Shown piece by piece: positions 56,480-63,790 of a stretch of 64,000 bases of DNA (positions are counted from its first letter, which is position 1; every line of letters starts with the position of its first letter). Source of the stretch: Candidatus Aldehydirespiratoraceae bacterium (GTDB taxonomy: Bacteria; Actinomycetota; Acidimicrobiia; Acidimicrobiales; Aldehydirespiratoraceae). Made by a program: the position numbers and the translations under genes. The notes below the pieces were generated by a model, which was not told the DNA's origin, searched no databases, and saw only the letters and a list, made by a program, of their open reading frames with translations. Location: the NCBI GenBank assembly GCA_965198365.1, contig OZ240617.1, positions 83,752 through 147,751 of the forward strand, read 5' to 3'.

Positions 56480-59400
56480 TTACCTCGGCACGGTAATGGT
56501 CGCTGAGTCAACGGTACCATCGCCATCAGAATCCGACATAGCTGGCAGTTCAGCGCTGCCTCCGACATGGTTGACCACGGAGACAACCACTGTGTAGGTA
56601 CCGGGTGTTAGGCCAGTGATGGCGTACTTACCCGTTTCCTTACCGGAGACGTTCGCACTGCCGATGCTACCGCCCGCTCCTGCTGCCGATGGATACCATC
56701 TGACCTTGTAGCCGGTGATGGTGCTTCGGACATCGGCTGGCGAGATGCTGTTCCATGCCACGTTGAGCGTGGTCTTGCTGACCGCGGTGTTGATCGAAAC
56801 CGTTGGGCTGAGGTCGTGTTGACCAGGCTGGTCTCCAACAAGTGGGACACCTTCGGATTTGACCACAGCGGCGTAGCCCGAACTACCAGCGTTATTGGCG
56901 TTTGCCCTGACCCGTACCAGATAGTGCTTTCCTTCCGCATCAGCACGGGTGAGCACGATCACAGCTTCCGTCTTCTTGTCATCTGGTATGACGACATTCA
57001 CCGCATCGGCAGCCGACCAATCTTGGCCGGCAATGTAGGCGCCGGTCGGCGTGACTTGCCGGTACTGGATCGTGTAGCCGGTGATTGCGCCGCCACCGTT
57101 GGTTTGGGTAACCGGTGACCATCTGACAAACAGAGTATTACTAGTGGTGGGATCGGCAGGAGCACGCGTCGCGATTGAAACTGCTACGACTGAGGCAGGT
57201 GCTGAAGCCACACCGCTCGTCGAGAATCCAGTCTCAGCGCTCGATGTGCCCTTGCCGATTGCGTTGACGGCTTGGACCTGCACCACATAACCGCTGTCGG
57301 TTCGCAGACCCCTGATCGTCGTACGGGTTGCTGGTGCGTTTACCCGGATATCGGAACTGAACTGCGAGCCCGCTGTAGATAGTGCATACCTCACCAAATA
57401 GTGCGTGATATCACTACCACCGTCGGCGGGCGCGTCCCATCTCAAGGTTACTGAGCTGAAGCCAGGTTCAAGATCATCCCCTTTATTGAGCACAACCGGG
57501 TCGGGCTGTGTGGCTGGGGTTCCCGAACCAGTTGCCCATGGGCCATTAGCTGTCGTAGTCGGCGCAGTCCTCGGGTTTGGAATGTTGACTGCCTGGACTC
57601 GCACGTCATATGCGGTACCCGCATCCAAACCGGTGATGTCGACCTTCCTGTTTACGACATCGATCGTATCAACATTCGTGTCTCCCCAATCACCGGCAGG
57701 GCCTGTGCCTCTGACACCTGGTACTGCGGGGACCATGGAAGTCCGATACTCAACCACGTAGCCGTTCCCAGGGTTTGTACCGTTGGATCCTGGTGCGTTC
57801 CATGAGACTTTCAAAGTGGTGCCCACATGTGGAACGCCAGTCAACACCGGAGGCGGAACAGCAACGATATTGCTGGGAGCAGAATTCACGGATTCTGGTT
57901 TCACTGTTAGTAAAGCACTGGTCGCGGCAGGTGTATCGGCGGTATCTGAGCCGGCACCACTCTTGCCAGCAGCGTTGACTGCTTTGACTGCAACTGTGTA
58001 GTTGTAGCGATTGTCTAGACCAGTGATGGTGTATGACCTCACATCAGCCCCAACGGTGGCCGAACCGCCGCCGTCCCAAGTAATTTCGTAACCCGTGATG
58101 GGGCTGCCCCCGTTGTCGGGTTCATTTCCGCCTCCGGTGGGAGCGGGGTCAATAGCTTGCACGGGTGCTGCCCATGTGACCTGCAAGGACTGGTGAGCCT
58201 TGGTGACCTCTACATCTGTTGGTTGACCAGGAGGTCCTGCTGTAGTAGCAGACACCGTTGCCCATGGACCAGACAGCTCTTTGTCGTCACCGTCGTTGAA
58301 CGCTCCGAAACGGGGATTAGGCGTTCCATCAGTGAGTAGTGGACGCTCGGCAACACGAGGAGTGTCGTCATCATTGTCGTCTGCGACAAGGTCAACCCAA
58401 CTGTTCACACGGACCCGAACTTCACACGCCTGGCCCGCCGTGCGGCCGTCGATGGTCATCTCGTAAACCCGAGTAGTTGGCGCATATGCCACGGGAGAAC
58501 CTGTCACGGAGGTTGCGGTCCAAGAAACGGTTGTTCCGCATCTGATCTGAACGTCGAAGTTGCGTAGGTTTGCGCCACCGCTGTTAGCGGGCTCCGACCA
58601 ACTCAGAGCCAACACCGCTGGATTGAGGCTCCTATCCGCGTTAACCATGGTGCCTGCCTTGAAGTTTGCAGGAGCGCCCGCTGCGACGGGTTCTGGCGAA
58701 ACCAGCCCAGCACCACCGCCGCTACCTGGGGCGGTACCGTCACCTGGTGTGGTGATCGTGCCGACACCGGCAGCGTTCACTGCCTGGATCCACACGGAAT
58801 AGCTCAGATCGTTGCGCAATTCTCTAATGGTGTACGACGTCGCATCACCATCATCAATCTCAACTTGCTGGCGTGCACCGCGACCCGCAGCCCACTGGAC
58901 CACATAACCAGTCACGGCACTACCACCATCATCAGCTGGTGCTGCCCAAGCCAATTCCAACGACTCGTTACCAGCAGTCGCCGTGAAATCACTCACAGCA
59001 CCTGGCACCGTCGCTGGACTACCCGACGCCTCATCGGACCAGTCACTCTGGCCGTCACCGCTCACCGCAGCGACACGGAATGTGTACGCAGTGCCCTGGG
59101 TGAGACCATCGGCCGTGGACGAAGTGCCGTCCACCGAACTCTGGTTGTCAGCGGAGTAGTCGTCGTCGCCCGACTTCCACTGCACGACATAGCCGGTGAC
59201 ATCGCTTGTGCCGCTTTCTTCAGGGGCTGTCCAGGAGACATCCAACGCATCTCCATCGTCACCACTGACCGCAACTTCAACACCGGTCGGAGCTCCCGGA
59301 GCTTCAGTTGGATCAGGTAGAGCATCAAGCACTCGATGCATACGTGCGACAAACGACGCCATCTGCTCGCGTGTCACATTGTTGGACGGCGAGTACGTCG

Positions 59401-60055
59401 TATCTGTAGTACCCGTCGTAACGCCCAGAGCAAAGATCTGACCAATAGCGGCCTGCTGCTCGTCACTGCGCTCACCGATGTCGGTGAACTCAGTCGTTCC
59501 AGCCGCAGCGTCCTCGCCCGTGACCGCCGTATAGAGGCGTGTCAAGAACAAGGCCATGTGGCCGCGAATCACAACGTCATCAGGCGCATACAAAGTGCCT
59601 TCCGGATTGACGCCGTTGGTGATGCCGAGTCCAGCGATACGAGCAATATCGTCCTCGTTCGGGTCGCCGGCCACATCGGTGAAAGCGTGATCAGCAACAT
59701 CTGCTGCGCTTCCCGTGGCCGCTGCGTATGCCCCAGCCATGAACCGGGCCATCTCCGAACGAGTTATATCGTCGCCAGGCCTGTAGGTGTCACCCTCTGC
59801 GGGGATGCCCAATTCTAGAAGACATGCGATGTCGTTGGCGTGTGTTGTGCCTGCGACGACATCCGAATAGTTATCGGTGCCAGATGGGCACGAACTACCG
59901 CCGTCCTGCGCGGTCGCTGTGACCGTGGCCAAACCGAGACTGCCCGCGACGACGACAAAGGCCACCGCCATACGTACTAGGCGAAGCACACTCAACCGAA
60001 TCGATCGGTTCGGCACCTTCACCGGCACTCCCTTTCCCGTTACTGCTGAACTCAT
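56480..60055 (-). CDS. Secreted SLH(x3)-FN3(x8) surface protein, paralog 4
   Basis: Same architecture; longest acidic loop in FN3 domain 3; C-terminal DSDGDG motif. Confidence 0.9.
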   Translation of the reverse strand: MSSAVTGKGVPVKVPNRSIRLSVLRLVRMAVAFVVVAGSLGLATVTATAQDGGSSCPSGTDNYSDVVAGTTHANDIACLLELGIPAEGDTYRPGDDITRSEMARFMAGAYAAATGSAADVADHAFTDVAGDPNEDDIARIAGLGITNGVNPEGTLYAPDDVVIRGHMALFLTRLYTAVTGEDAAAGTTEFTDIGERSDEQQAAIGQIFALGVTTGTTDTTYSPSNNVTREQMASFVARMHRVLDALPDPTEAPGAPTGVEVAVSGDDGDALDVSWTAPEESGTSDVTGYVVQWKSGDDDYSADNQSSVDGTSSTADGLTQGTAYTFRVAAVSGDGQSDWSDEASGSPATVPGAVSDFTATAGNESLELAWAAPADDGGSAVTGYVVQWAAGRGARQQVEIDDGDATSYTIRELRNDLSYSVWIQAVNAAGVGTITTPGDGTAPGSGGGAGLVSPEPVAAGAPANFKAGTMVNADRSLNPAVLALSWSEPANSGGANLRNFDVQIRCGTTVSWTATSVTGSPVAYAPTTRVYEMTIDGRTAGQACEVRVRVNSWVDLVADDNDDDTPRVAERPLLTDGTPNPRFGAFNDGDDKELSGPWATVSATTAGPPGQPTDVEVTKAHQSLQVTWAAPVQAIDPAPTGGGNEPDNGGSPITGYEITWDGGGSATVGADVRSYTITGLDNRYNYTVAVKAVNAAGKSGAGSDTADTPAATSALLTVKPESVNSAPSNIVAVPPPVLTGVPHVGTTLKVSWNAPGSNGTNPGNGYVVEYRTSMVPAVPGVRGTGPAGDWGDTNVDTIDVVNRKVDITGLDAGTAYDVRVQAVNIPNPRTAPTTTANGPWATGSGTPATQPDPVVLNKGDDLEPGFSSVTLRWDAPADGGSDITHYLVRYALSTAGSQFSSDIRVNAPATRTTIRGLRTDSGYVVQVQAVNAIGKGTSSAETGFSTSGVASAPASVVAVSIATRAPADPTTSNTLFVRWSPVTQTNGGGAITGYTIQYRQVTPTGAYIAGQDWSAADAVNVVIPDDKKTEAVIVLTRADAEGKHYLVRVRANANNAGSSGYAAVVKSEGVPLVGDQPGQHDLSPTVSINTAVSKTTLNVAWNSISPADVRSTITGYKVRWYPSAAGAGGSIGSANVSGKETGKYAITGLTPGTYTVVVSVVNHVGGSAELPAMSDSDGDGTVDSATITVPR

Positions 60056-60478
60056 TGCTGCTCCATTCTTGGTTGGATTGTCTGGCTCTTCGCAGACACC
60101 AGTCGAAATCTAGCGGTTAACTGCACCCGGCACCTTGCTGGGACACAGAAAACACCTATCACGATCGGCATGCAAAGGTTAGCGCAGGCCGATTTCTAAC
60201 ACAACCCAACCCCCAAGTCAACGACATAGGGGCCGGAAGAGGCGTCAGAATCGCTAGGTGTCGGTAAGAAACCGCACATGTATTCAAGGCCTTCAGCATA
60301 ACGCCACAATTGGTTACGCGCCATGCTTTCACGGGCTAACTGATCCACCTTTCTTCTTGTTGAGGATTCTGGAGTCGGGGCGGGGGCTCGGCAAGGGGCC
60401 GTTACGCTGTCCGGAAGCGGCCCCCTGGTCGCCGCGGGACACTGATTCTCAGCCCGTCGACAACACGTCCAGCAACCC

Positions 60479-61318
60479 ATGGAAAGCCTTGTGATCCGAC
60501 TCCCAGCACTCCCCTATCCCCAAGACGCCCTCGCCCCGCATATCAGCGAACGAACCATGGGATTCCACTACGGCAAACACCACGCCGGCTACGTGGCCAA
60601 CCTCAACAAACTCCTTAGCGGTGGGGCCGGCAAGGTCGGGAACACTGTGGGAGCCTCAGGTGGTGTGGCTGGTGGGGTTGGTGGTGGGGCTGTTGGTGGG
60701 GCTGTTGGTGGGGCTGTTGGTGGTGGGGCCGGGGGTGCGGGTGGCCGTGGGGCCGGCGGCGGGGCTGGCCGTGGGGCTGGCGGCGGGGGGGTGAGCCTTG
60801 AGACGCTTATTACTACCCCCGGGCCGGTTGCGGTGTTCAACAACGCCGCCCAGATCTGGAACCACACCTTCTACTGGCAATCCATGAGCCCCGACGGCGG
60901 AGGCGACCCGAGTGGAGAACTCGCCTCGGCCATCACCTCCAGCTTCGGGTCTGTCGACACGTTGCGGGACGAGCTGACCGCCGCGGCGACCCGCAACTTC
61001 GCGTCCGGCTGGACCTGGCTCGTGCGCCTTGGTTCTGGTGCTGGGGATGGTTTTGGCGGCGCTGGGGGTGCTGGGGGTGCTGGGGATGGTGGTGGCGGTG
61101 CTGGGGGTGCTGGGGGTGCTGGGGGCGGGGAGTTGGCCGTCATCAACACCAACGATGCCGACAACCCACTGGTGAGCGGGCACCAACCACTGATCACGAT
61201 CGACATCTGGGAACACGCCTACTACCTCGACTACCAGAACGCTCGGCCCGCCTACATCGCCACGTTCCTCGAGCACCTTATTAATTGGGACTTCGCAGCA
61301 GCCAACTACGCCGCCTGA
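60479..61318 (+). CDS. sodB: Fe/Mn superoxide dismutase (Fe-type signature) with two Gly/Ala-rich insertions
   Basis: HYGKHH, FNNAAQIWNHTFYW, SGWTWL, DIWEHAYYLDYQN: all metal ligands present; AAQ and DAD pattern of FeSOD. Confidence 0.85.
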   Translation: MESLVIRLPALPYPQDALAPHISERTMGFHYGKHHAGYVANLNKLLSGGAGKVGNTVGASGGVAGGVGGGAVGGAVGGAVGGGAGGAGGRGAGGGAGRGAGGGGVSLETLITTPGPVAVFNNAAQIWNHTFYWQSMSPDGGGDPSGELASAITSSFGSVDTLRDELTAAATRNFASGWTWLVRLGSGAGDGFGGAGGAGGAGDGGGGAGGAGGAGGGELAVINTNDADNPLVSGHQPLITIDIWEHAYYLDYQNARPAYIATFLEHLINWDFAAANYAA

Positions 61319-61535
61319 GCTTGCATGGGCCTGGGCCTGCGTGGGCCGACGCCTGAGCCGTCGCCGCCTGAGCCTGAGCCGGCCGAGCCTTCCTAGTCAT
61401 CCCGACGCTGCGTGAGCCGCCTGAATCGCTTGAGAACCACGCCGCCTGAGAACTACGCCGCTGCGTGGGCGAGGCGTGTGGTGTGTGGGGCGAGGCACCG
61501 GGGTGTGCGGGCGAGGCACGGCGTGGGCGAGGCGT
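61319..61535. repeat. Low-complexity intergenic repeats echoing the SOD 3' end
   Basis: Several GCCTGAG and CGCCGCCTGAG units, AACTACGCCGC and four GGGCGAGGC units. Confidence 0.7.
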
Positions 61536-61652
61536 ATCACGGAACGTGCTGTTGTAGTGTCACAGGGTATGTGATAGCTTGACGAGCATCGACAACCGGT
61601 CCTAATCGTGCCGCCTTGGCGGAGGGCGTGTTAGGTGCACGAAAGGACAATA

Positions 61653-62042
61653 ATGGAGCCATCCGTGATCGAAACGATCAGCATTTTCGGAGGAGCAGCA
61701 CTCCTACTGTTCGGCTGGTTCATCAGGAGCGTGGGCACGAAGATCGACAAACTCGACGAGAAGGTCGACAAGCTCGACAAGAAAGTCGACACGAAGATCG
61801 ACAAACTCGACAAGAAAGTCGACACGAAGATCGACAAACTCGACGCGAAAGTCGACACGAAGATCGACAAGCTCGACAAGAAGGTCGACAAGCTCGACGA
61901 GAAAGTCAACACGTTGACAGCGAGCGTCGCGGCGATAGCGGCGACCCAAGCCGAGCACGGCATCATGCTCCAGCACATGATGGGGCATGGGGAGCGCATC
62001 AGCGCACTCGAAGGTGCCGTCTTCGGAACCGCCGCTACCTAG
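61653..62042 (+). CDS. N-terminal TM + KID-repeat coiled-coil protein (Bdr-like repeats)
   Basis: TKIDKLDKKVD hendecads and KLDxKVD heptads in the order 11-7-11-11-11-7; C-terminal ERISALEG. Confidence 0.8.
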   Translation: MEPSVIETISIFGGAALLLFGWFIRSVGTKIDKLDEKVDKLDKKVDTKIDKLDKKVDTKIDKLDAKVDTKIDKLDKKVDKLDEKVNTLTASVAAIAATQAEHGIMLQHMMGHGERISALEGAVFGTAAT

Positions 62043-62227
62043 TTCATCAGGTCTTCGCGCGGCTTTAGCAATCGCCCGCTGGGTGGGCCAGACCTGGTTG
62101 GGCGAGGAATATCACAGAACATATTGTGATTGTGTCACAAGGGCTGTGTTAGTGTGATACACATCAACAATAGATCTCAGTCATCTCACCATACCGGGGA
62201 TCCGTCTGAGGTCAGGAGAGGACAACA

Positions 62228-62500
62228 ATGGAACTAGCACAAGTTGTATTGGTCAGTATCTGGACCGGATCGATTGTCTTTTTTTTCATCATGATGGTTG
62301 GCATGGTCAGGGACGATCGAAAACGGGAACGAGACCAACGGAAGAGAGACCTGAAACGCGAACACGACCAACGAGAGAAGAGGCTCACACAGGAGATCAA
62401 GACGCTTGAACGAAGCCTCGGCTCGAAGATCGACACAATCGACAGGAGTGTCGGAAGGCTTGATGAGAAGGTGCTGGAGCTCAGCTCGTCCAGGACTTGA
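62228..62500 (+). CDS. N-terminal TM + short coiled-coil protein
   Basis: GGAGAGG RBS, TM, charged coil, SKIDTIDRSV. Confidence 0.7.
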   Translation: MELAQVVLVSIWTGSIVFFFIMMVGMVRDDRKRERDQRKRDLKREHDQREKRLTQEIKTLERSLGSKIDTIDRSVGRLDEKVLELSSSRT

Positions 62501-63518
62501 CCTTCTCGATAAGGGCCAGCGGATCGCCACCAACCGGGGTGACCTGTAGACGAGTAACGCCAGCCGCGGCATACGCCTCCACACGCTCCCGGACCCGGCC
62601 CTCGTCGCCGACCATCGCCGTGGCATCAAGGAAATCCTGAGGGACCGCAGCCATCGCCTCATCCTTACGGCCTGAAAGGTACAGATCCTGAATCTCGTGT
62701 GCTTCTTGTTCATAGCCGTACTGACAGAAGAGGTTGTTGTAGAAGTTCTGATCCCTCGAACCCATACCCCCCACATACAACGCCACCATGAAACGAGCGC
62801 CGTCACGAATCTTCTGCGCCTGCGGCTCATCACAGATCGCAAGCAAGCCGCCGGCCACGACCTCCAACGGTCCCAGAGCCGGATCACGCTTGGCCGTGCC
62901 CTTCGCCAACACGTCGCTCCAAACCGAGCGCGCCTTGTCGGGGTGGAAGAACACCGGAATCCAACCGTCGGCAACCTCGGCGGTCGTCGCAACATTGCTC
63001 GGACCAAGCGACGCAATATATATAGGTATGTTCGAACGCTTCGGATGGTTGATCAACTTGAGCGGCTTACCCAGACCCGTGCCCTGGTCGGGCGGGAGCG
63101 GCAGCTGGTAGCTCGGGCCGTCGTGCACCACGACCTCACGGCGCCACACCTTGCGACAAATCTCGATCAACTCACGCTGGCGACCAACCGGGCGGTCATA
63201 GGGCACGCCATGCCAACCCTCGATCACCTGAGGACCCGACGCGCCGATACCGAGAATGAAGCGTCCATCGGAGACCGCATCGAGACCGGCCGCAGTCATC
63301 GCCGTGAGGGTCGGCGTGCGCGAATAGATAGGCAGGATGCTCGAGCCGAGCTCCATGGTCTCGGTCTTAGCCGCTAGATAACCGAGAATGCTGACCGCGT
63401 CGAAGCTGTACAGCTCCGCCACCCAGCCAACATCGATCCCGGCGGATTCCAGATCTCGGGCTTGCTCGGCCGCAGCCTTCGGATCGCCGGAGTAATTGAG
63501 TGTCATCGACAGCTTCAT
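62481..63518 (-). CDS. LLM-class F420-dependent oxidoreductase
   Basis: WVAELYSFDA, GRFILGIGASGPQVIEGWHG, IPIYIASLGP..V.TTAEVADGW; start trimmed to MKLSMTL. Confidence 0.9.
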   Translation of the reverse strand: MKLSMTLNYSGDPKAAAEQARDLESAGIDVGWVAELYSFDAVSILGYLAAKTETMELGSSILPIYSRTPTLTAMTAAGLDAVSDGRFILGIGASGPQVIEGWHGVPYDRPVGRQRELIEICRKVWRREVVVHDGPSYQLPLPPDQGTGLGKPLKLINHPKRSNIPIYIASLGPSNVATTAEVADGWIPVFFHPDKARSVWSDVLAKGTAKRDPALGPLEVVAGGLLAICDEPQAQKIRDGARFMVALYVGGMGSRDQNFYNNLFCQYGYEQEAHEIQDLYLSGRKDEAMAAVPQDFLDATAMVGDEGRVRERVEAYAAAGVTRLQVTPVGGDPLALIEKVKSWTS

Positions 63519-63534
63519 CGTCTTTGTGCTTTCA

Positions 63535-63621
63535 GTTCGGTTGTGTGGTTGGGGGGTTCGGGGGTTCGGTTGTGTGGTTGGCGGGTTCGGGGGTTCGGTT
63601 GTGTGGTTGGCGGGTTCGGGG
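63535..63621. repeat. 3 x 29-bp tandem repeat in the divergent LLM/sulfatase intergenic region
   Basis: GTTCGGTTGTGTGGTTGG(C/G)GGGTTCGGGG at 63535, 63564 and 63593. Confidence 0.9.
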
Positions 63622-63790
63622 GTTCGGGGGTTGATTTCCGGGAGGATAACTATTGTCAGTGTTGGCGACAATAGTTGACCCGCCGTAGTGTCACACCGTT
63701 AACCAATACTGGCAACCACCCCTGCCAACCAACCCTGTCCATAAACCCTGCCCACAAACACGGCCGACCGACAAGCTAGGAGAACAACTC

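Follow-up and report, generated by a model that had tools for sequence, protein, structure and literature searches.

How can a conserved enzyme accommodate two long tracts of glycine and alanine within its chain, and why are these tracts there? The question is raised by a superoxide dismutase (SOD) gene, sod, on a stretch of 64,000 nucleotides from a Candidatus Aldehydirespiratoraceae bacterium (GenBank assembly GCA_965198365.1, contig OZ240617.1, positions 83,752 to 147,751, forward strand), which is referred to below as the window. A sequence-only reading had proposed that the gene carries two in-frame Gly/Ala repeat insertions of 57 codons (60620-60790) and 33 codons (61031-61129), and both are confirmed by codon counting and by alignment with sequences from the PDB. 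The explanation that we consider likely is that the inserts are in-frame, G/T-rich minisatellites, driven by slippage and tolerated at two surface loops of an Fe-type SOD (FeSOD) that would still be active. The gene is built up as follows.

60479 to 61318, plus strand: coding sequence of the Fe-type SOD, 279 aa, an uninterrupted open reading frame (ORF)
60479 to 60619, plus strand: core part 1, residues 1-47, with the N-terminus, helix alpha1, His30 (60566-60568) and gateway Tyr38
60620 to 60790, plus strand: insert 1, residues 48-104, 57 aa, of which 33 Gly, 11 Ala, 7 Val and 2 Arg (58% Gly, 19% Ala, 12% Val)
60791 to 61030, plus strand: core part 2, residues 105-184, with a short helix, helix alpha2 with Gln125, His129 (60863-60865), further helices and strand beta1 (GWTWLV)
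61031 to 61129, plus strand: insert 2, residues 185-217, 33 aa, of which 22 Gly, 7 Ala and 2 Asp (67% Gly, 21% Ala)
61130 to 61315, plus strand: core part 3, residues 218-279, with strands beta2 and beta3, Asp242 (61202-61204), His246 (61214-61216) and the C-terminal helices

The core around the inserts is that of a canonical FeSOD. Both Pfam domains of the family are recognized, Sod_Fe_N (PF00081) with 83 bits (cut-off 27) and Sod_Fe_C (PF02777) with 109 bits (cut-off 20.9), and each match is broken into two stretches by an insert. The top matches of a sequence search against the PDB are all FeSODs (E about 1e-58). The alignment with SodB of E. coli (1isa) consists of three blocks, pairing residues 7-50, 99-187 and 216-279 with SodB residues 3-46, 44-131 and 130-192, and both inserts lie outside these blocks. 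Without them the core counts 189 residues, the usual length of an FeSOD. The metal ligands H30, H129, D242 and H246, which had been described as intact, align with His26, His73, Asp156 and His160 of the E. coli enzyme and are invariant in an alignment of 46 homologues, as are the gateway Tyr38, Gln125, Glu245 and Ala227. Two of these residues mark the Fe-type: Q125 within FNNAAQIWNHTFYW corresponds to E. coli Gln69 (AAQxWNH), and A227 within NTNDADNPL corresponds to E. coli Ala141. Mn-type SODs carry a Gln at the latter position. Cambialistic metal use may exist alongside this Fe-type assignment.

An AlphaFold2 (AF2) model, built from the alignment of 46 homologues, shows the two-domain SOD fold with a predicted local distance difference test (pLDDT) score above 90 throughout the core. 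Foldseek places this model close to the FeSODs of E. coli, Coxiella and Pseudoalteromonas (1isa, 2nyb, 3tqj), with target-normalised TM scores of 0.91-0.93. From sequence and model together, the gene product is predicted to be a working cytoplasmic FeSOD that probably retains catalysis. No signal peptide or export signal is seen in the ORF. Upstream in-frame extensions of some database entries were considered as an export or Tat leader, and this was rejected because they are translated 5′ untranslated region; in the window, an in-frame stop lies 11 codons upstream of the gene. The true start may be GTG at 60491 instead of ATG at 60479, as the resulting protein (MIRLP..., 275 aa) fits the N-termini of most orthologues and the gene call in the closest relative. 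An intein, or protein splicing in general, was rejected on inspection, since the Gly/Ala tract has no nucleophile or Asn signature.

This FeSOD is the only SOD found in the genome, a single contig of 3.75 Mb that is 94.7% complete. One Fe/Mn SOD locus is present and no Cu/Zn SOD was found in the genome; the hook motif of NiSOD, HCDxPCGxY, has 0 matches in it, and the Pfam search for NiSOD was run without a working control.

The inserts differ from the gene body in nearly every respect. About 80% of the residues in both are Gly or Ala. Relative to members of the family without inserts, the net gain is 51 residues for insert 1 and 31 residues for insert 2, or 82 residues over the ancestral loops combined. 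In the model, insert 1 connects helix alpha1 (24-47) to the short helix at 107-112 (SLETLI), and insert 2 occupies the turn between beta1 (178-183) and beta2 (219-224). Both inserts are predicted to be disordered, with pLDDT values below 50 at residues 55-103 and 189-214. From published FeSOD structures, we take insert 1 to sit at the tip of the helical hairpin of the N-terminal domain and insert 2 at an outer beta-turn, both far from the metal site and the dimer interface. In the peptide of insert 1, VSLETLITTPGPVAVFNNAAQIWNHTFYWQSMSPDGGGDPSGELASAITSSFGSVDTLR comes after Arg98 inside GAGGGGVSLETL, and GGGELAVINTNDADNPLVSGHQPLITIDIWEHAYYLDYQNAR is a further stretch of the protein that a junction peptide would span.

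At the DNA level, the inserts were described earlier as G-rich in a C-rich gene, and indeed they contain 60% G and 15% C, compared with 24% G and 37% C in the gene body. T occupies 51% of the third codon positions in the inserts and 8.5% in the gene body. Gly is encoded by GGT (40%) and GGG (38%), together 78%, versus 25% and 18% (43%) in the genome, and the Ala codon GCT accounts for 72% of Ala codons in the inserts versus 18% genome-wide. Using Tandem Repeats Finder, the following arrays were called; they are listed together with a G-run at the end of insert 1.

60670 to 60723, plus strand: 12-bp array of TGGTGGGGCTGT, 4.5 copies, 95% matches, encoding GGAV repeats
60723 to 60788, plus strand: 24-bp array, 2.8 copies, 88% matches, encoding GRGAGGGA-type repeats
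60785 to 60794, plus strand: run of seven G (G7) followed by GTGA, in which TGA overlaps the GTG codon of Val105
61037 to 61124, plus strand: 39-bp array made of 9-bp GCTGGGGGT sub-units, 2.3 copies, 93% matches, encoding AGG repeats

The 12-bp unit behind GGAV is thus as the sequence-only reading had it. The 9-bp unit that it gave for insert 2 is present as well (6.9 copies), although the array is better described by the 39-bp unit. A frame slip inside insert 1 would end at the TGA in 60785-60794. The same TGA closes a spurious, out-of-frame ORF of 57 aa that misleads gene callers in relatives.

The comparison with relatives, which took in 60 related genomes plus protein clusters from public metagenomes, indicates how these arrays behave. 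The relatives that have names are metagenome-assembled genomes of Candidatus Aldehydirespiratoraceae, and the family, UBA11606 in GTDB, has been described as including a sponge-associated clade (PMC11706023). Wherever the SOD gene could be recovered from a genome of the same genus (16 species genomes), both loops are expanded, with gaps of 23-100 residues at loop 1 and 34-86 at loop 2; the family's other genera have gaps of 22 and 29. Expansions of +1 to +76 and +3 to +97 residues occur at the same two sites in about 40 related protein clusters. Over genomes and clusters together, this gives a graded series from +1/+3 up to +78/+97, and the clustered proteins range in length from 194 aa, without inserts, via 200-230 aa to 361 aa. 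In basal members of the genus the Gly/Ala-rich loops are short, such as AEGGGAGAGSAGVL and PGGGAG; intermediate members carry 10-30 additional residues, and the arrays of crown members are long and near-perfect.

A maximum-likelihood phylogeny of the core without its loops gives support of 100/100 to the clade with inserts and of 100/98 to the long-loop crown clade. Core branches within the crown are only about 0.005-0.02 long, yet the net gain spans +22 to +76 residues for insert 1 and +8 to +97 for insert 2; cores that are 95-99% identical thus have loops that differ widely in length and repeat unit. Depending on the lineage, loop 1 is made of GGAV, RGAGGGG(G/D), GAGGA or AVGRGAGG units, and loop 2 of AGG, GGAGD, GAGAG or GAGVG units. 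As the units differ between lineages, arrays have repeatedly been built or rebuilt at the same two sites. The closest copy of the gene, on contig L113 of metagenome ERZ25067264, has flanks that are 97% (downstream) and 88% (upstream) identical to those in the window. Outside the arrays the two genes are more than 99% identical, with a handful of substitutions. Within the arrays, they are set apart by indels of 15, 33, 3 and 51 nt, each divisible by three. Contig L114, a second, 96.5%-identical one from the sample of L113, has again a different pair of loops. Contig L116, with a coverage of 145x, carries an intact long-loop SOD gene. On this sequence evidence the inserts are genuine and not an artefact, since the same two sites are expanded in many independent assemblies, the 145x contig included.

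Within the genome, the phenomenon is confined to very few places. Only 36 segments of 90 nt in the genome have at least 55% G on one strand, two of which are the SOD inserts. When every stop-to-stop frame of 150 aa or more was scanned in windows of 18 residues, with thresholds of 85% for Gly+Ala and 40% for Gly, only SOD and the poly-Gly linker of a surface protein of 2759 aa passed. The phenomenon is therefore gene-specific, and a genome-wide bias toward Gly/Ala insertion, which was considered as an alternative, was rejected. A blastn search with the insert DNA against the 3.75 Mb genome gave self-matches only and no second copy. In a broader scan, the sole other long Gly-rich coding tracts were linkers of giant surface proteins (frames of 2759, 1902 and 967 aa) outside the window, at C1:247533-247832, 494694-494927 and 1757518-1758003; these poly-Gly, GGD or GGGS(D) linkers are encoded by (GGY)n microsatellites.

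The inserts are equally unusual among SODs. In the 148 best representatives after clustering at 50%, loop-2 gaps are 27-34 with a few structured outliers of 38-51, and loop-1 gaps, measured with broader anchors, are 24-36 with outliers of 40-57; Gly/Ala low-complexity loops are confined to this clade. None of the solved SOD chains matched has a comparable insert, and the literature searched contained no description of such Gly-rich inserts, either for Fe/Mn SODs or for this family. In three of the homologues (P0242, P0259 and P0195), the beta1-beta2 turn is longer by about 17-22 structured residues, which shows that it tolerates indels. A 46%-identical FeSOD of 237 aa (P0069), encoded on a 3.17 Mb contig of another lineage of Acidimicrobiia, carries an independent insertion at this turn as well, about 30 residues long and more complex in sequence, DGASTTGDDSGADGVAVGHGSLGGFGPGGGSDAG, which suggests from the sequences that the turn may be a recurrent insertion hot spot in the class. 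Three further entries among the nearest SOD representatives, P0121 (398 aa), P0124 (353 aa) and P0125 (1217 aa), match the query in 5-7 stretches and far exceed the size of one SOD; these are probably SODs fused in tandem or proteins with several domains.

These observations can be joined in a model of tolerated slippage. At the base of the genus, small Gly/Ala duplications would have arisen in two places, the alpha1-alpha2 connector and the beta1-beta2 turn. Such microsatellite seeds would then gain and lose units of 9-39 nt, either through slipped-strand mispairing or through unequal recombination among the units, which is what we propose as the cause of the block indels. Selection on the sole SOD would purge frame-breaking variants and bulky or sticky compositions, which would explain why the units are multiples of three and why the Gly/Ala(/Val) frame alone is seen. 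The surviving Gly/Ala(/Val) coil would protrude from the folded core as disordered loops, and the enzyme would survive the inserts because the disorder falls in two surface loops that tolerate indels. Loop length would drift with little constraint, between 0 and about 100 residues in each loop.

The slippage expansions suggested by the sequence-only reading are strongly supported by the near-perfect tandem repeats, by the in-frame block differences among cores that are 95-99% identical and by the predicted disorder at the variable loops; a loop-length comparison of orthologues, which it had asked for, shows expansions at both sites throughout the genus. The behaviour of the arrays is that of minisatellites, with units of 9, 12, 24 and 39 nt that differ in copy number among close relatives and with flanks that are unchanged. 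Slippage as the mechanism, retained catalysis, the distance of the loops from the active site and the dimer interface, and neutrality as opposed to benefit belong to the interpretation.

Several findings weigh against tolerated slippage, in particular against its purely neutral form. Among ORFs of 150 aa or more, Gly/Ala runs occur in SOD alone, if the poly-Gly linker of the surface protein is set aside. Both loops have expanded in parallel, and they have been lost in no member of the crown clade, where the minimum is +22 and +8. Bacterial genomes are usually biased toward deletion. Moreover, breaks of the frame by 1 nt occur in runs of five or six G (G5/G6) of loop 2 in two to three relatives.

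The same specificity and persistence can be read as the mark of a selected protein function, an alternative that we regard as unlikely but that deserves serious weighing. In that case, the loops would be adaptive features kept by selection on SOD specifically. They could act as slippery tracts against AAA+ unfoldase-proteases or host proteolysis, as entropic bristles against higher-order oligomerisation or aggregation, or as weak RG/Gly-rich modules for interaction or condensation; the sequence-only reading had likewise suggested disordered loops that function in condensation or surface tethering. Besides being SOD-specific in the genome, the Gly/Ala segments are kept at both sites in every member of the genus, all crown proteins having at least +22 and at least +8, and their composition is held to Gly, Ala and Val with few Arg or Asp over independent repeat units. 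Insert 1 presumably lies at the hairpin tip, where tetrameric Fe/Mn SODs make extra contacts. Poly-Gly and Gly-Ala repeats have been documented to hinder unfolding and degradation by ClpXP (PMC9531181). However, loop lengths vary from 8 to 97 among cores that are 95-99% identical, and the variable part has no conserved motif. In addition, the rare, unoptimised codons of the inserts suggest young sequence with a high turnover, and the SOD has no signal peptide or evidence of export.

A stronger version, which we hold to be improbable, would make the loops a selected, SOD-specific device of a sponge-associated genus, serving either to shield the enzyme from proteases or host degradation or to control its oligomeric state, or else making SOD expression switchable through the G-runs. 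If true, this would be a bacterial enzyme that uses hypervariable, repeat-encoded, disordered loops as a functional module.

It is very unlikely that the selected feature is the nucleic acid itself, either as a G-quadruplex (G4) in the non-template DNA or the mRNA that tunes transcription or translation of sod, or as G-runs that switch the gene on and off by phase variation. Putative quadruplex sequences (PQS), defined by the canonical motif of four G3+ runs with spacers of 1-7 nt, are indeed found in the gene:

60725 to 60752, plus strand: canonical G4 motif GGGGCCGGGGGTGCGGGTGGCCGTGGGG, on the coding strand in insert 1
61103 to 61130, plus strand: G4 motif GGGGGTGCTGGGGGTGCTGGGGGCGGGG, one of 13 genomic motifs in which all four runs have four or more G

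The gene thus holds two of the 211 PQS in the genome, including one of the 13 with four G4+ runs (runs of four or more G), and the predicted RNA folding energy is about 31 kcal/mol lower per insert once G-quadruplexes are allowed. The arrays contain, besides the one G7 run, several G5 runs. The position of the gene may add to their instability. SOD lies at 144 kb on the plus strand, dnaA at about 186 kb and the minimum of the cumulative GC-skew at about 200 kb, so that replication, starting about 45 kb away, probably meets the gene head-on. Such an orientation favours R-loop and G4 instability, and one might speculate that G-rich non-template DNA in a head-on gene raises the instability of the arrays. 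Nevertheless, the loops of most orthologues have no PQS at all, including the very long ones of L005 and L011, and a conserved G4 function is therefore unlikely; the sequence-only reading was right that the gene could form G-quadruplexes as far as the motifs go, and only that part of its suggestion stands. Searching 59800-62200 against Rfam gave no RNA family at E ≤ 1. As for a switch, the units are multiples of three, so that a change in length leaves the gene on.

The one-base frame shifts in the G5/G6 runs of loop 2 would speak for phase variation. They occur in P0028 on contig L114 (4x; L114:1501-2418), in P0044 on contig L115 (14x; L115:1501-2243) and in P0047. In L115, moreover, a 39-nt unit is duplicated together with the first codons of strand beta2 (ELAVINT), which it contains. 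Because the coverage of the frame-broken contigs is low, sequencing error is more likely than inactivating or phase-variable slippage, and the intact gene on the 145x contig fits this pattern.

Other database entries suffer from gene calling. P0030, P0034 and P0042 start at MSLETLI, are devoid of the N-terminal domain and resemble split genes. For P0030, a split SOD was rejected: on its contig (L116:1286-2031) the SOD frame is continuous, and the caller took an out-of-frame ORF over loop 1, cutting the SOD to 176 aa. The truncations of P0034 and P0042 are probably the same artefact, as these start at the same MSLETLI. Atypical G/T-rich codons thus mislead gene callers and G-runs yield apparent frameshifts in low-coverage assemblies, with the consequence that SOD may be mis-scored as broken or absent in these symbionts.

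That the inserts are an assembly error, the remains of a dead gene, or an in-frame dispersed palindromic or mobile repeat, in the manner of Rickettsia palindromic elements (RPE) or miniature inverted-repeat transposable elements (MITE), is largely refuted and scarcely credible: G-rich, low-complexity DNA is prone to error and certain entries of relatives do appear truncated or frame-shifted, but in-frame expansions recur at the two insert sites across independent assemblies (16 species genomes and about 40 clusters), the SOD core is strongly conserved, the truncated entries are caller errors over an intact frame (checked at the DNA level for P0030), and an RPE/MITE-like element is rejected because inserts of 60% G and 15% C are not palindromic and have no other copy in the genome.

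The surroundings of sod contain further repeats. Tandem units of the GCCTGAGCC type, with a period of 15-16, overlap the stop codon of SOD (61313-61390), and this block is conserved in L114. A 20-nt unit, GTGTGCGGGCGAGGCACGGC, is present in 2.5 copies at 61483-61534, 3′ of sod. No terminator-like hairpin was found in the 3′ flank of sod, and a scan for promoters and terminators gave nothing above chance. The neighbouring genes are listed here.

56480 to 60055, minus strand: surface protein of 1191 aa with SLH and fibronectin-III domains, divergent from sod
61635 to 62042, plus strand: ORF of 135 aa, with a hydrophobic segment at the N-terminus and with 33-nt tandem repeats (4.3 copies, 89% matches)
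62481 to 63671, minus strand: ORF of a Bac_luciferase/LLM-type oxidoreductase with a repetitive N-terminal extension rich in Pro, Thr and Asn, PEINPRTPEPANHTTEPPNPPTTQPNPRTPQPHNRTE

The pairing of sod with the divergent surface protein gene is kept in L113-L116, and the side of the surface gene diverges much faster than the side of sod (between the window and L113, identity is 88% on the former side and 97% on the latter). The repeats of the 135-aa ORF encode KIDKLDKKVDT-type heptad or undecad repeats, and syntenic genes follow sod in L113-L116. The extension of the oxidoreductase ORF is encoded by the repeats at 63533-63642, one of the 36 most G-rich segments of the genome, read there on the opposite strand. 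The oxidoreductase may actually start at the internal MKLSMTLNY, which would make the repeat at 63533-63642 an upstream non-coding array.

Across one sponge-associated genus of Acidimicrobiia, these SODs form a natural allelic series with 0 to about 100 residues per loop. The series bears on how much disorder the compact fold of a metalloenzyme tolerates at defined loops, on the birth and turnover of minisatellites inside coding DNA, and on the effects of Gly/Ala tracts on protease susceptibility or oligomerisation in bacteria.

Compared with known systems, the enzyme is closest to SodB of E. coli (1ISA/2NYB), with which it shares the two Pfam domains, the four ligands, the Fe-type Gln/Ala and the fold (TM 0.91-0.93), and a core of 189 versus 192 aa. 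Unlike in the dimeric E. coli enzyme, disordered Gly/Ala segments of 57 and 33 residues replace the short alpha1-alpha2 connector and the beta1-beta2 turn. The plastid FeSODs FSD2 and FSD3 (PAP9 and PAP4), as well as the Vigna FeSOD (1UNF), are likewise longer than 200 aa. PAP9 and PAP4 are components of the plastid RNA polymerase. The extra segments of these FeSODs are of high complexity and conserved, and mediate docking in PAP4 and PAP9, whereas those described here are of low complexity, repeat-encoded and hypervariable. The homologues P0242, P0259 and P0195 were not identified as plastid enzymes.

Long low-complexity inserts are rare in bacterial housekeeping enzymes, and here one enzyme, an essential antioxidant one, has two. 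The low-complexity regions (LCRs) of Plasmodium proteins are a close parallel, being repeat-encoded, disordered and fast-evolving loop insertions in conserved enzymes that arise by slippage (see also PMC2705789). However, the Plasmodium LCRs are genome-wide, rich in Asn/Lys and driven by composition, while here one enzyme is affected in a genome of 60% GC and the loops are rich in Gly/Ala. The glycine-alanine repeat (GAr) of EBNA1, the mycobacterial PE_PGRS proteins and poly-Gly tracts share the GGA/GAG-type peptide and the G-rich, partly G4-prone coding DNA. GAr and poly-Gly impair ClpXP and the proteasome (PMC9531181). Here, the segments are internal loops of an enzyme, not linkers or whole domains, and the resemblance to GAr and poly-Gly tracts is one of composition; at the DNA level, the segments are G/T-rich, in contrast to the purine-rich repeat of EBNA1 and the GC-rich PGRS. 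As with in-frame palindromic insertions such as Rickettsia palindromic elements, extra in-frame DNA sits at loop positions, here of a conserved SOD gene, but the sod inserts are non-palindromic and non-dispersed, and consist of tandem arrays of variable copy number. Altogether, this is an otherwise canonical FeSOD with hypervariable, repeat-encoded loops, specific to one gene and one genus, and as such a variant of a known enzyme instead of a new system.

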